Positions 7,140-43,200 of a stretch of DNA of 64,000 nt are shown here, piece after piece; position 1 is the stretch's first letter, and each line of letters starts with the position of its first letter. Position numbers and translations under genes: made by a program. This DNA comes from Candidatus Moranbacteria bacterium RIFOXYB1_FULL_43_19 (GTDB lineage: Bacteria > Patescibacteriota > Minisyncoccia > Moranbacterales > UBA11712). The notes beneath the pieces were generated by a model. The model worked only from the letters and a program-made list of their open reading frames with translations, searched no databases and was not told the origin of the DNA. The stretch lies in contig MFSH01000023.1 in NCBI GenBank assembly GCA_001784875.1, positions 33,969 to 97,968 of the forward strand, written 5' to 3'.

Positions 7140-8636
7140 ATGCCAGTTCAAAATTCCAAAGAAAATCGCAAAAAATGCCTTTGCCCGAACTGTCCGAGTT
7201 ACCCGCATGAATGCGACGGAGAAGTTTTATATTGCGCGGAGAAGGTGGGGCATAGCCAGTGCGACGTGAACGCCAAGGGCTGTCTATGCCCCGGATGTCT
7301 GGTTTGGAGTGAGAATAATCTCAAGGAAATATATTATTGCACGCGCGACACAATAGAACTAGCTTCCGCCCGAGGCGGATCCGCCTTTGGCGGAAAAGTT
7401 GTGATGCGGAAAAAAAAGCCGGACGAGAGCAATGAATTTTATCAGACAGTTGCGGACATAAAAACAATAGCCGAAACAGGCGAGAGCATTGAAAGGCCGA
7501 TGGGTTCGCTCAAGAAGCCGGGTTGCGGGTTATCTCTGGATAATCTGCATTTTGTCCCGGCGCAAGTGGCGAAAATTCCGCTCGACAGGGAAGAAAAAGT
7601 GAAAACTGGTGTTATTATCGGTCCGGTTGCAAAAAAACCGCTCAAAGTTTCATCTCCTATTATGATTACGGGAATGTCTTTTGGCGCGACCTCAAAAAAT
7701 GTGCATCTTGTTATTTCTCGCGTTGCGAAGGAACTGAAAATTGCTTTCAACTCTGGTGAAGGAGGCATCCTTGAAGAAGAATACGAATCAAAGAAATATC
7801 TAATCGGCCAATACGCTACCGGACGATTTGGAATCAATGAAGATGTGATCAAAAAAGTGGCGGCGGTTGAAATTCGCTTTGGACAAGGCGCCTATCCCGG
7901 GAAGGGAAGTTATCTGCCGGCCAAGAAAATGAGCGAAGAAGTCGCGAATCTGCGGGGACTGAAAACAGGCGAACCGGCCTATTCTCCCGCGCACCATCAT
8001 GATATGGAAACGCCAGGGGAAATTGCAGAGAAAGTGAAATGGCTCCGCGAACTGACGGGAGGAGTTCCCATCGGCGCGAAAATCGGCTGTGGAAATGTTG
8101 AGGAAGATGTGAAAGTTTTGGCCGAGGCCGGAATTGATTATATCGCCATTGACGGATTTGGCGGGGGAACAGGTGCGACGGACGCCTATGTCAAAGACAA
8201 CGTTGGGATTCCGGTTTGGGCGGCGATTCCAAAAGCTAATCAAACTCTTCAAGAACTGGGAGCGAGGAAAAATGTTACCCTCATCGCCGGAGGAAGCTTG
8301 CGGCTCTCGGCGGATTTTGCGAAGTGTCTCGCGCTAGGAGCGGATGCTGTTTATATCGGTACGGCCGCGCTCATTGCCATAAACTGCCAGCAGTATCGCG
8401 TCTGCCATACGGGACTTTGCCCGACGGGCGTGACTACCCATCGGCCGGAACTCGCTTCGCAGCTCAATGTCGAAGAAGGCGTCCGAAAATTATCAAACTT
8501 TATAAAAATATCAACCGAAGAAATTGCAGAATTCACAAGAATAGTCGGAAAAGATAATATAAATAAATTATCAAGCGAAGATTTAGTTTCAATAAAAAGA
8601 GATTTGGCGGAAATCCTCGGGGTAAAATGGATATAA
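7140..8636 (+). CDS. glutamate synthase domain-2-like FMN-binding protein (archaeal-type GltB family) with N-terminal 8-Cys module
   Basis: GSLRLSADFAKCLALGADAVYIGTAALIAINC..C..TGLCPTG matches GltB FMN/Fe-S domain; N-terminus CLCPNCP..C..C..CLCPGC. Confidence 0.75.
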   Translation: MPVQNSKENRKKCLCPNCPSYPHECDGEVLYCAEKVGHSQCDVNAKGCLCPGCLVWSENNLKEIYYCTRDTIELASARGGSAFGGKVVMRKKKPDESNEFYQTVADIKTIAETGESIERPMGSLKKPGCGLSLDNLHFVPAQVAKIPLDREEKVKTGVIIGPVAKKPLKVSSPIMITGMSFGATSKNVHLVISRVAKELKIAFNSGEGGILEEEYESKKYLIGQYATGRFGINEDVIKKVAAVEIRFGQGAYPGKGSYLPAKKMSEEVANLRGLKTGEPAYSPAHHHDMETPGEIAEKVKWLRELTGGVPIGAKIGCGNVEEDVKVLAEAGIDYIAIDGFGGGTGATDAYVKDNVGIPVWAAIPKANQTLQELGARKNVTLIAGGSLRLSADFAKCLALGADAVYIGTAALIAINCQQYRVCHTGLCPTGVTTHRPELASQLNVEEGVRKLSNFIKISTEEIAEFTRIVGKDNINKLSSEDLVSIKRDLAEILGVKWI

Positions 8637-39930: not shown

Positions 39931-40467
39931 CTAGAAACTGACCGTCAATCGGCTTCTGTCAACCGCTTCAAGCTTTTCCAGATGCTCCAGAGCGTCAAAC
40001 AGGTCTTTCCCGACGCACAGGCCGCCGCGATACCATTTCAAATCACTCCTCCGATAAGTGTATCCCCTCTCTTTGAGAAGATTTTTGACCAAGACTTCGC
40101 GCAGGTTTCCGAAAGGAATTTCGTTTCCTGTTCCGACCCAGACAGCCAATCGCATTTTCTTTTTCAGTGTGTCGGAAAAATCGGGAATTTTATTTCCTTT
40201 GCCTCGCTTGGGCAGGTATTTTTTGTATGCCGGACGCAGCTTGGCCAACAGTCGCAAGGCTTTTTTATACGCCTTGTCTTCTTCGCCTTCCACGATTTTG
40301 ACTCTTGCCTCCAGAGGCCCCATCTCCTTTTCAGCGCAGGTGCTTTCAGGTTTGCCAACAAATTTGTTCGCTATTCGTTCACAAGCCATGACAAGGCTCC
40401 AGGTGAACCTGTCCATGATGCACTCGTTATGGATCCGAAGGCCCAATAGGTTCTTTATATTTTCCAT
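39931..40467 (-). CDS. hypothetical protein (178 aa)
   Basis: ORF with Lys/Arg-rich centre; no recognisable domain. Confidence 0.4.
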   Translation of the reverse strand: MENIKNLLGLRIHNECIMDRFTWSLVMACERIANKFVGKPESTCAEKEMGPLEARVKIVEGEEDKAYKKALRLLAKLRPAYKKYLPKRGKGNKIPDFSDTLKKKMRLAVWVGTGNEIPFGNLREVLVKNLLKERGYTYRRSDLKWYRGGLCVGKDLFDALEHLEKLEAVDRSRLTVSF

Positions 40468-40548
40468 CGCCCCCTCCTTGAAATGATTGCGATAGTGAAA
40501 AATAGCACGCCAAGTGCTATGTGTAAAGTTGCTCCCGGGACAGGTATC

Positions 40549-40860
40549 CTACGTCTTTGACTTCGGACTACTTTTTCGCCCCAGTGTAAAATCCTTCGCC
40601 AAGGCTACCGATACTAAACGCTTATAGGTGAAAGCCTTTCCCGAACCTGTTTTTAAGTAAAGCTCAAAATCTCTCGCTTGTTTTTCTGTTTCGAAAGCAC
40701 AATACCAAACTAGCTTCCAAGGTATATGAGGTTTTGTAGATTTAACTTTTCCAGAATTATGAAGATGAATTCTTCCTCTTAAATTATTTGTTGAACCAAA
40801 ATAAAATATATGAGATTTTGAGCTTAGCAAAATATAAGTATTATACATAACAAAAACCAA
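40549..40860 (-). CDS. GIY-YIG nuclease family protein (YhbQ/UPF0213-like)
   Basis: YNTYILLS...HIFYFGSTNNLRGRIHLHNSG..E matches GIY-YIG catalytic core. Confidence 0.7.
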   Translation of the reverse strand: MVFVMYNTYILLSSKSHIFYFGSTNNLRGRIHLHNSGKVKSTKPHIPWKLVWYCAFETEKQARDFELYLKTGSGKAFTYKRLVSVALAKDFTLGRKSSPKSKT

Positions 40861-41100
40861 GGCTTATATGGAATATTATACCACTTTGGCATGCAATTCC
40901 GTAGCCTTGGCGAAGGATTGCTCTCAAGATGGAACGATTATCGAACTTTGGATATTAAGAAATACTATCCAAATATTGATTTTTGCTTGAAGGAGGCGCG
41001 GAAAATAAATTGTATCGTTTGACACAAAAATATTTATTTTAAAATAAAAAATAGCGGCCCATCGCAAGGATGGGCCGTTTTTGCTTCGGGGGAAACCGTA

Positions 41101-42219
41101 TCATCCCGGAGATATTTTCTGGAATAACCCTTTCTTCCAGCGCTGCGCAGTTCTTAAATTTAGATTCAAGATTCTGACAGCCTTCGACTGATGATAACCT
41201 TTCACGAAAAGGAGCCAAAGAAATTTTATTTCCATTGGCTCGAGATACAAGAATATCCTGAGCGAAAGCTCCACTGGGTCGATTTCCTCGCCCGGGAATT
41301 TCTCCGCGGCCATTTGGAAATTATTGTTTGCCGCGAGCTCCCGTATTTTTTCCACATCGGTTTCATAGGCACGGTTCAGCCCCATCATCCATGATTTTCT
41401 TTCCGTCTCAAGGAAAGAAAGATTGGGAACACTGCCTTTTTTCAAGGCTTCCGAGGCTGCGTTAACGATTTTGAGCCTCAGAATGGCTTGGGCATGAAAC
41501 TGAGAAACTCTCGGCGGCGTGAACCCCATTTCCTTCGCGATCTCCCTCATGGTGCGGTCTTCGTAGTAAAACCTTTTCAAAACAATTTGTTCTTGATTGG
41601 GAAGAACACTGAGAAAGATTGGAGCCGAGACTCTGGCGCTGTTTCGGTGCACCTTTTCCATCGTTTCATCTTGCGTAGCCGGATAACCCCTGAGCTCATC
41701 AATGTTCACAAATCCGGTCGACTCAATGTTGGCCAATTCGTGGTATGCCTCGAAAGAAATCCCGAGATGCTCGATGAGTTCATCTTCTGAGGGCGAGCGT
41801 CCGAGAATTTTTGTCAGCTGACTGCGAGCCTTGCCCAAGATCTTCATCTTGTTACGGAATGATCTGGGTATGGCATCCATGTAGCGAAGTTCGTTCAGTA
41901 TGGCCATCTTCACTCGGAACGTGGCATACGTCCAAAATTTGCCCTGTCTTGAAGGGTCAAACTTGCTCATCGCACCAACCAAGCCCAGCAGTCCCGCCCC
42001 GACCAAATCGTCGGCGTGGACATCCGCCGGAAGCTTATAGGCCATTTGCCCGGCTATCTTTCGGACTTTTTGCAAATACCGGTTGAGGAAAATTTCCTCC
42101 TTCCTCTTCTCAGGAATTTCTGAGGCAAGGATTTCTTCAGGCGACCATTTCTCAAGCGCGCCTGCGAGCAATTGGGCCGATGCTTCGACATTAGTGTTCT
42201 TTTCAGGCATTTCGGTCAC
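41101..42219 (-). CDS. sigma-70 family sigma factor (group 3, FliA/SigB-like) with ~100-aa C-terminal extension
   Basis: Region 2 (DLVGAGLLGLVGAMSKFD..FWTYATFRVKMAILNELR), region 3, region 4 HTH (QIVLKRFYYEDRTMREIAKEMGFTPPRVSQFHAQAILRL); extra C-terminal segment with a second HTH-like stretch. Confidence 0.8.
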   Translation of the reverse strand: MTEMPEKNTNVEASAQLLAGALEKWSPEEILASEIPEKRKEEIFLNRYLQKVRKIAGQMAYKLPADVHADDLVGAGLLGLVGAMSKFDPSRQGKFWTYATFRVKMAILNELRYMDAIPRSFRNKMKILGKARSQLTKILGRSPSEDELIEHLGISFEAYHELANIESTGFVNIDELRGYPATQDETMEKVHRNSARVSAPIFLSVLPNQEQIVLKRFYYEDRTMREIAKEMGFTPPRVSQFHAQAILRLKIVNAASEALKKGSVPNLSFLETERKSWMMGLNRAYETDVEKIRELAANNNFQMAAEKFPGEEIDPVELSLRIFLYLEPMEIKFLWLLFVKGYHQSKAVRILNLNLRTAQRWKKGLFQKISPG

Positions 42220-42440
42220 CCTCCTATATTTTTTGGTTTGAAAAGAGCGGGGATATAATTTGATAAATCTCCTCCCGACTAAAAAATAGATTAAGGTAAG
42301 ATAGTTTTTTTTGCAAATATCAATCGTCTTTCAAGCAAAAGACGGAGTTCGAATACCGGCCGGATACCAAAAAAAGCTTTGTATAAAGCTTCGAAAAAAT
42401 GGCTGATTTCTCACTTTCGAACCGCCCATATTTGGCTTTC

Positions 42441-42478
42441 AAAATGCAAAAATACCACTTAATTTGGCGGTATTTTGT
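42441..42478 (-). terminator. rho-independent terminator downstream of tRNA-Asn
   Basis: minus strand AAAATACCgccaaattaagtGGTATTTT then UGCAUUUUG. Confidence 0.5.
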
Positions 42479-42484
42479 CGGTGC

Positions 42485-42773
42485 TCCCGGGGTCGGATTC
42501 GAACCGACAACCAATTGATTACACTTATCCTAATGTTTCCAGAAGGGGTGGACTATATCATTGCCTTATCAAAATAATTTTGATTTAGGCATTTTGGTAT
42601 CTAGTCTCTACGGTGCCCCTGATGTTACATCGGGGTTCCCACGGTATTAGCATACCCCTCAAAAAGAGCGATTTAGCTTTCACCGTTATCCCAAAATTTT
42701 TCGACCTAAGTTTCCTTAGGAAGCTGCGTTTAATGTTCACAGTCAACTGCTCTACCATTGAGCTACCCGGGAA
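42485..42773 (-). tRNA. tRNA-Asn(GUU) interrupted by a group I intron in the anticodon loop (exons 42773..42740 and 42522..42485; no encoded CCA)
   Basis: Exons give U1CCCGGG-UA-GCUCAAUGGUAGAGC-A-GUUGA-CUGU|UAA-UCAAU-UGGUU-GUCGGUUCGAAUCCGAC-CCCGGGA-G73; canonical Asn loop CUGUUAA, U1-A72, G73; 5' exon ends in U, intron ends in G. Confidence 0.7.
42523..42739 (-). ncRNA. group I self-splicing intron (~217 nt, no ORF)
   Basis: P7 pairing GACUA...UAGUC; R-like GAGACUAGAUACC and S-like GAUAUAGUCC elements; GGGUAUGCUAAUACC A-rich block; IGS GCAG pairs with exon CUGU (U.G at splice site); terminal G. Confidence 0.6.
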
Positions 42774-43020
42774 TAAAATTTTTTATGTGCTCGTCTAGCC
42801 ATTTTCTTCCCTGGCCAGACTTCAAAAAATTCTCTCTTTTTATTGCATCAGATTTTTCAGAAAATTCTTCCAAGTGAACCATAGTAAAGGGTTTATTATA
42901 GCGTGTCCACTTATTGCAACCTCGATTGTGTTCCCCTAATCTTTTGAGAGCTTTTTTTGAAGTATAACCAATATATCTTTTTTCGTTTTTTGAACTCTTT
43001 AGAACGTAAACCGTATACAT
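42763..43020 (-). CDS. GIY-YIG nuclease family protein (YhbQ-like); 3' end overlaps tRNA-Asn 5' end
   Basis: MYTVYVLKSSKNEKRYIGYTS...RLGEHN GIY-YIG core; stop codon TAG lies within tRNA positions 8-10. Confidence 0.7.
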   Translation of the reverse strand: MYTVYVLKSSKNEKRYIGYTSKKALKRLGEHNRGCNKWTRYNKPFTMVHLEEFSEKSDAIKRENFLKSGQGRKWLDEHIKNFIPG

Positions 43021-43136: not shown

Positions 43137-43200
43137 ATACTCTTGTATTCTACGGCAAAAGTTTCCCTTTGGCAAGAATATGGGATAAAATATATATAAC

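Follow-up and report, generated by a model that had tools for sequence, protein, structure and literature searches.

A Moranbacteria tRNA-Asn(GUU) gene with a predicted ORF-less group I intron between anticodon positions U35 and U36

The window analysed here is a stretch of 64,000 nucleotides from a draft Moranbacteria genome (Patescibacteria/CPR). The locus is present in Rifle groundwater MAGs; GCA_001784775.1 and groundwater assemblies from JGI and ENA contain the identical intron-tRNA sequence, and the NCBI record of the protein encoded next to the tRNA carries the name Candidatus Moranbacteria bacterium RIFOXYB1_FULL_43_19. The only tRNA gene in these 64 kb, a tRNA-Asn gene, lies on the minus strand in two pieces. 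The features of the locus are the following.

43147..43175, minus strand: TTGCCA-17-TAGAAT, a promoter-like site ahead of the GIY-YIG ORF, picked up by a consensus scan
42763..43020, minus strand: ORF of 85 aa comprising a GIY-YIG catalytic domain only (Pfam PF01541, E 2.4e-15)
42772..42739, minus strand: tRNA-Asn 5' exon, positions 1-35, ending in CUGU with U35 as its last base, read from the sequence
42738..42522, minus strand: group I intron of 217 nt with no ORF and with its terminal G (omegaG) at 42522, predicted from RF00028, covariation and the MFE fold
42521..42484, minus strand: tRNA-Asn 3' exon, U36 to A72 plus the discriminator G73 at 42484, read from the sequence
42449..42476, minus strand: terminator-like hairpin plus U run, 8 nt beyond the tRNA gene, picked up by a consensus scan
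40549-40860, minus strand: second GIY-YIG domain-only ORF, 103 aa, 1.6 kb away and downstream of a sigma-70-like gene

The 5' exon (42772..42739, minus) reads UCCCGGG UA GCUC AAUGGUA GAGC A GUUGA CUGU and the 3' exon (42521..42484, minus) UAA UCAAU UGGUU GUCGG UUCGAAU CCGAC CCCGGGA G, CCA being absent from the encoded 3' end. When the two are joined, ARAGORN recognizes a tRNA-Asn(GUU) with a perfect cloverleaf. The intervening sequence starts with GAACAUU and finishes with AUAAGUG. That a tRNA-Asn(GUU) gene is split here by an ORF-less group I intron of ~217 nt had been proposed in an initial annotation made from the letters alone, and the proposal is borne out by a match to RF00028, by covariation among 31 introns and by the ARAGORN result on the joined exons. 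We put the probability that this Moranbacteria tRNA-Asn(GUU) gene has a 217-nt group I ribozyme without an ORF inserted between anticodon bases U35 and U36 at about 0.93. The sequence elements named at that time (the exon U preceding the intron, the final G, GACUA/UAGUC, GAGACUAGAUACC, GAUAUAGUCC, GCAG and AUUA) are all present, while the boundaries given for the two exons, 42740 and 42522, each have to be shifted by one base, the 5' exon ending at 42739 and the 3' exon starting at 42521.

Taken together, the promoter-like site and the terminator-like hairpin suggest one transcription unit, both being consensus matches; the promoter-like site agrees with the consensus at 10 of 12 positions, and such sites are not more frequent than expected from shuffled sequences. 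Mechanical ORF calling also places two reading frames on the minus strand, one of 64 aa (42320-42514) over the 3' exon and the terminator and one of 57 aa (42585-42758) over the intron. Both are almost certainly spurious, and the former appears as a gene in the public annotation for locus L001 (6045-6239).

Standard tools pass over the gene. ARAGORN in its default mode finds zero tRNAs across the 64-kb window, and no Rfam family matches the whole window at the gathering thresholds. In a permissive Rfam scan of 42300..42950 (651 nt), RF00028 (Intron_gpI) was matched at 42529..42742 on the minus strand over the full model, with 49.4 bits and an E value of 1.5e-11 that is local to this 651-nt search; as the gathering score of the family is 50, the match falls 0.6 bits under it and is thus absent from the output of a standard run. 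Matches to RNAI and rimP near 42446..42519 were rejected as chance hits that fall on the terminator hairpin. A search of the window for the exact core pattern GTAGAGACTAGA-N(20-50)-GATATAGTCC gave a single match, where shuffled sequences predict 0. The initial annotation had recommended ARAGORN with intron detection, and this search does locate the gene; the product that it reports, however, is tRNA-Thr(tgt) i(33,217) at c[42483,42772], that is, Thr(UGU).

To evaluate the fold, 31 distinct ORF-less tRNA-Asn introns, including the window copy, were aligned with MAFFT. A structure of 72 pairs (P1-P10) drawn on the window sequence was scored, and the same pairs with partners slid by 1-3 columns served as controls. 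The elements of the predicted structure outside P10 are located as follows.

42724..42728, minus strand, intron nt 11-15: internal guide sequence C-GCAG, the partner of intron G1 and exon CUGU in P1
42705..42720, minus strand, intron nt 19-34: P2 hairpin CCUAAG-GAAA-CUUAGG, two-sided changes in 6/6 pairs, 92.9% of cells paired
42691..42697, minus strand, intron nt 42-48: P3 5' strand AUUUUGG, partner nt 142-148
42612..42686, minus strand, intron nt 53-127: P4-P5-P6 domain, placed by the 31-intron alignment
42602..42608, minus strand, intron nt 131-137: P7 5' strand G-A(bulge)-GACUA with the J6/7 core element, invariant in 31/31
42591..42597, minus strand, intron nt 142-148: P3 3' strand CCAAAAU, placed by the 31-intron alignment
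42563..42590, minus strand, intron nt 149-176: P8 hairpin, two-sided changes in 10/11 pairs
42550..42555, minus strand, intron nt 184-189: P7 3' strand UAGUCC, invariant and in agreement with the RF00028 consensus GAUAUAGUC
42523..42549, minus strand, intron nt 190-216: P9.0 (A190-U216, C191-G215) around P9 with its GAAA loop

Across P1-P10 of the 31 introns, standard pairs occupy 86.6% of the cells, compared with 34.8-40.3% in the slid controls. Changes on both sides were found in 45 of the 72 pairs, and the covariation score amounts to 0.360, a value reached by none of 500 shuffles, with at most 0.106 in the controls. Compensatory changes are abundant in P2, P3, P5, P6a, P8 and P9. The P3 helix has two-sided changes in 5/7 pairs and is paired in 89.9% of the cells; P4 and the outer part of P5 reach 100% pairing, each containing a single pair with a double change, and P6a covaries at 77.8% pairing. 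The two pairs of P6 are 100% paired and invariant. Since P7, P6 and much of P4 never vary, these helices are complementary yet provide no evidence of covariation; the 5' strand of P7 nevertheless agrees with the RF00028 consensus AGACUA. In P9, two-sided changes affect 6/7 pairs, and the window copy carries two central mismatches (U.U and C.U). Minimum free energy folding of the intron alone, also proposed in the initial annotation, recovers P2 and P4-P9 (-57.8 kcal/mol, z -2.77). In view of the covariation statistics and the MFE fold, the predicted P1-P9 fold is well supported, and the group I core helices P3-P8, including the P3/P7 pseudoknot, are backed by covariation, P7 being invariant but complementary. 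The layout is a minimal P1-P9 one, with no P7.1/P7.2 insertions seen. The P5 motif GCUAAA/UAUGC appears similar to the 11-nt GAAA-tetraloop receptor.

The P1 and P7 pairings had been described correctly from the outset, namely CUGU/GCAG with a U.G wobble and GACUA/UAGUC. All four CUGU/GCAG pairs of P1, including the wobble pair U35.G12 at the splice site, are invariant in 31/31 introns, and the fifth pair, formed by intron nt 1 and the base preceding GCAG, covaries (CG 7, GC 7, AU 5, unpaired 0). The claim of a P10 pairing (AUUA/UAAU) fares less well, as it is possible in the window sequence but poorly conserved, with only 40.6% of the cells paired across the 31 introns.

The RF00028 score just below threshold (49.4 vs 50 bits) and the two P9 mismatches might be taken to mean that the intron is a decaying, splicing-dead relic in a tRNA pseudogene, with a functional tRNA-Asn encoded elsewhere in the genome. 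Such decay seems very improbable given that none of the core helices is disrupted, that the invariant elements J6/7, P7 and J8/7 are likewise preserved, and that every covarying pair is satisfied in the window copy except for the two in P9, where the variant containing U.U is found again in other members of the family. Moreover, the exons give a perfect cloverleaf and the sequence is identical across independent assemblies.

The ARAGORN call raises the question of where exactly the exons are joined. According to it, the intron would lie two bases further 5', at 33/34 (CU|GUGAAC...AUAAG|UGUAA), and the gene would encode tRNA-Thr(UGU), a competing reading that is absent from the initial annotation. 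As a U precedes the intron and a G closes it in either case, a real test was needed. Five lines of evidence place the predicted junction at 35/36 and identify the tRNA as Asn(GUU). The first is P1, where the canonical U.G wobble of the invariant CUGU/GCAG helix lands on U35, CUGU being the 5' exon end in all aligned homologues; with the Thr junction the splice-site base would instead form a U-A pair. The second is P9.0, which is 100% paired, changes from C-G to U-A in 3 sequences and lies directly before the terminal G217. This position accounts for the conserved GUG at the intron end, by which ARAGORN is misled, and in the Thr reading the covarying P9.0 would swallow the supposed terminal G. 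The third is the tRNA body. Asn and Thr could not be told apart by identity over the whole body, for which 177 intron-less tRNAs were compared, but they could by the identity elements: U1-A72 and G73 are shared by the window gene, its intron-bearing tRNA-Asn homologues (ends UCC...GGAG) and the intron-less tRNA-Asn genes of L178-L186, whereas 51 of 58 intron-less Patescibacteria tRNA-Thr genes from the same loci have G1-C72, C2-G71, C3-G70 and U73. The fourth comes from intron-less alleles, for which the initial annotation had advised a search among relatives. They exist at orthologous loci and carry the same sequence across the junction: intron-less tRNA-Asn genes that occupy the equivalent place behind orthologous GIY-YIG genes share 82-87.5% identity with the joined exons, their anticodon loop is CUGUUAA, and in L182 a 29-nt stretch spanning the window junction is identical. 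The fifth is provided by the sister family in tRNA-Tyr, in which intron-less L174 and intron-bearing L173 have the same flanks; the loop of L174, CUGUAAA, is compatible only with 35/36 and thereby fixes the junction in that family. Finally, the same miscall has been recorded for homologous genes whose spliced products, once sequenced, proved to be Asn (PMC13011429). The Thr reading is, for all these reasons, almost certainly wrong, and comparative analysis establishes the predicted fold, the junction between U35 and U36 and the tRNA-Asn identity.

If the intron acts as its relatives do, the transcribed intron would first fold into the P1-P9 core, whereupon the guide GCAG would pair with the exon end CUGU and set the U35.G wobble at the 5' splice site. 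An external guanosine would then cleave at this site, P9.0 (AC/GU) would place the terminal G217 in the P7 pocket, and the freed 5' exon would attack after G217, giving joined exons with the anticodon loop CUGUUAA. Catalysis is suggested here by analogy with homologous Patescibacteria tRNA-Asn introns whose splicing in vitro has been published. The window intron has no endonuclease and is probably inherited vertically.

Introns at position 35/36 of Patescibacteria tRNA genes have been reported by Nakagawa et al. (mSystems 2026, PMC13011429; preprint July 2025, 10.1101/2025.07.03.662931), and the window intron is a further example of this class. In complete Patescibacteria genomes, 15 of 22 tRNA introns were tRNA-Asn 35/36 introns, and most were without an endonuclease gene; ARAGORN and tFind either overlooked the genes or took them for Thr(UGU) genes with the intron at 33/34, and precise self-splicing at 35/36 was demonstrated in vitro, with the products sequenced (PMC13011429). 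The likeness to the window gene thus comprises the phylum, the host tRNA, the insertion site between U35 and U36, the lack of an ORF, a similar length (theirs 184-894 nt, mean 257), the failure of standard annotation and even the ARAGORN miscall. As for the differences, those homologues have been seen to splice in vitro while the window intron is known here from its sequence, and the window copy comes from a draft Moranbacteria MAG, outside the published set of 95 complete genomes. Nakagawa et al. assign their class to subgroup IA rather than IC.

Relatives of the window intron were gathered by means of the same exact core pattern, which is matched in 42 viral contigs and at least 119 genome contigs; a blastn search of annotated phage genomes gave no match. 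Among the matches listed, nearly all genome sequences are Patescibacteria MAGs, and the hosts of 35/36 introns are tRNA-Asn (at least ~40 independent loci), tRNA-Asp (at least 29) and tRNA-Tyr (at least 20). In all three hosts the exon ends in CUGU, in agreement with the invariant guide GCAG. Three apparent tRNA-His hosts turned out to be artefacts of junction enumeration, two of them being Asn and one Tyr. The initial annotation had considered a tRNA-Asn host unusual in this lineage; in the light of the published class (15/22, PMC13011429) and of the at least ~40 independent tRNA-Asn cases among the matches listed, this premise of rarity is out of date.

Seven tRNA-Asn introns among the matches listed are longer, 511-557 nt. 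Six of these (L067, L090, L091, L101, L150, L151) contain an ORF of up to ~100 aa with a CxxC...HH...CANCH motif, and the two ORFs that were scanned, those of L067 and L090, match Pfam HNH with 19.4 and 17.4 bits, below the cut-off of 21.4. These putative proteins are consistent with the HNH homing endonucleases reported from Patescibacteria tRNA introns (PMC13011429). In the remaining one, L123 (542-nt intron), no such ORF was found on the sense strand.

The classical bacterial hosts of group I introns include Azoarcus tRNA-Ile and Agrobacterium tRNA-Arg. As in the window, the classical bacterial tRNA introns are small ORF-less ribozymes inserted in the anticodon loop after a U, and the introns of tRNA-Leu(UAA) are also matched by GTAGAGACTAGA...GATATAGTCC, that is, they have the same core strings. 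We take the GAAA loops on P2 and P9 together with the receptor-like motifs in P5 and P8 to recall the Azoarcus architecture. The classical insertion sites, however, are 34/35 in cyanobacterial tRNA-Leu(UAA) and 33/34 in tRNA-fMet (PMC13011429), whereas the Patescibacteria introns occupy 35/36 of tRNA-Asn, -Asp and -Tyr with the common exon end CUGU.

Several related loci deserve mention on their own account. A related group I intron is present in L173 and absent from L174 at 35/36 of tRNA-Tyr(GUA) (see also L168 and L169, L171, L172); as exons and flanks of L173 and L174 are identical, the pair is direct evidence of intron gain or loss at this position. The 51-kb contig L175 (Ga0310786_10000781) carries an array of 13 tRNAs. 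At its positions 8400-8564 (+), a gene resembling tRNA-Tyr(GUA) is split at 35/36 by a complete tRNA-Asp(GUC) with encoded CCA (8435-8512), so that one tRNA effectively sits within the anticodon loop of a second; ARAGORN found no separate tRNA-Tyr in the 13.5 kb fetched from this contig. In L005, a 943-nt ENA groundwater contig, positions 258-620 join the GIY-YIG gene of the window, the tRNA-Asn 5' exon and the initial ~112 nt of its intron to the 3' portion of an intron from tRNA-Tyr, together with the tRNA-Tyr 3' exon. The likeliest explanation for this contig is chimeric assembly across the conserved core of the intron, and it shows that the same community harbours a closely related intron in tRNA-Tyr; a metagenome search with a pattern from the P8 region of L005 gave no matches.

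Both ORFs noticed near the tRNA in the initial annotation do encode GIY-YIG catalytic domains (Pfam E 2e-15 and 6e-16), and the first overlaps the 5' exon by 10 nt, its TAG stop codon being formed by U8-A9-G10 of the tRNA. Around the second one, an Rfam scan of 40300..41200 gave chance-level matches only, with no tRNA or RNA family. A search for homologues of the adjacent protein yielded 186 at E < 1e-5, typically of 81 aa (range 81-85 aa), and their contexts were fetched where DNA was available. In 7 of 7 sampled loci (L176-L186), a co-oriented tRNA-Asn gene lies directly downstream, at distances from a 10-nt overlap to an 18-nt gap; five of these tRNA-Asn genes are intron-less and two have an intron. 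The protein genes around the pair vary among loci, and the stop codon coincides with U8-A9-G10 in 6 of 8 independent loci (the window and 5/7 homologues). Conversely, an upstream GIY-YIG ORF occurs at only ~2 of 38 other tRNA-Asn intron loci. The GIY-YIG gene is, on this linkage, a companion of the tRNA-Asn gene and not of the intron. In Patescibacteria loci, further small GIY-YIG ORFs adjoin tRNA-Thr, -Val, -Tyr, -Asp and -Met genes (L054, L056, L059, L079, L086, L114, L152, L172), whether or not an intron is present.

The suggestion, made at the outset, that the GIY-YIG genes hint at past mobility of the intron is accordingly not upheld, orthologues preceding tRNA-Asn in 7/7 loci of which 5 are intron-less. 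In its explicit form it would have the adjacent protein act as a free-standing homing endonuclease and move the ORF-less intron by collaborative homing, cutting intron-less tRNA-Asn genes at the insertion site. The ORF does adjoin the sole tRNA gene of 64 kb, 10 of 15 small GIY-YIG ORFs in the sampled loci have a co-oriented tRNA no more than 115 nt away (a sample that is biased because the loci were picked for tRNA introns), and GIY-YIG endonucleases in tRNA clusters have a precedent in T4 SegB (PMC2330249). Yet the gene coexists with intron-less targets, as 5 of 7 copies sit beside what would be their own cleavage site, and this contradicts collaborative homing. Of the marks of a homing endonuclease, neither intron-specific linkage nor a DNA-binding domain is seen, the protein being a catalytic domain alone of 81-85 aa; the scarcity of the gene at other tRNA-Asn intron loci and the HNH-like nature of the intron-borne endonucleases in the family (PMC13011429) point the same way. 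We therefore regard collaborative homing as quite improbable and retain the GIY-YIG gene as a companion of tRNA-Asn.

GIY-YIG genes beside or inside a structured-RNA gene are known, in a similarly sporadic manner, from T4 SegB (PMC2330249) and from non-intron insertions in CPR rRNA genes (PMC11270868). Unlike those cases, the window protein consists of the catalytic domain only, is tied to tRNA-Asn with or without an intron, and is known here from its gene alone. It is conceivable, though rather doubtful, that the 81-85-aa domain-only family is a dedicated tRNA-Asn satellite across several Patescibacteria lineages. The pair could represent a tRNA-targeting selfish element homing in on the 5' border of tRNA-Asn. 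Another possibility is that RNase P, in cutting at the 5' end of the tRNA, would take off the stop codon of the GIY-YIG gene and so couple expression of the nuclease to tRNA processing. No description of the GIY-YIG/tRNA-Asn pairing was found in the literature searched, GIY-YIG neighbours being mentioned 0 times in PMC13011429, and the pair, often with the stop codon inside the tRNA, is possibly the sole new point of this locus.

For annotation, the consequence is that this MAG would be counted as lacking tRNA-Asn, and false reading frames are called across the intron and 3' exon; recognition of the intron mends both. The intron itself opens no new question, and the overlap of tRNA-Asn and GIY-YIG genes may merit a separate look. 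With regard to the biology of the group, the locus adds a Moranbacteria example to the published class and lends comparative support, through the covariation in P1 and P9.0 and through the intron-less orthologues, to the insertion of these introns at position 35/36.
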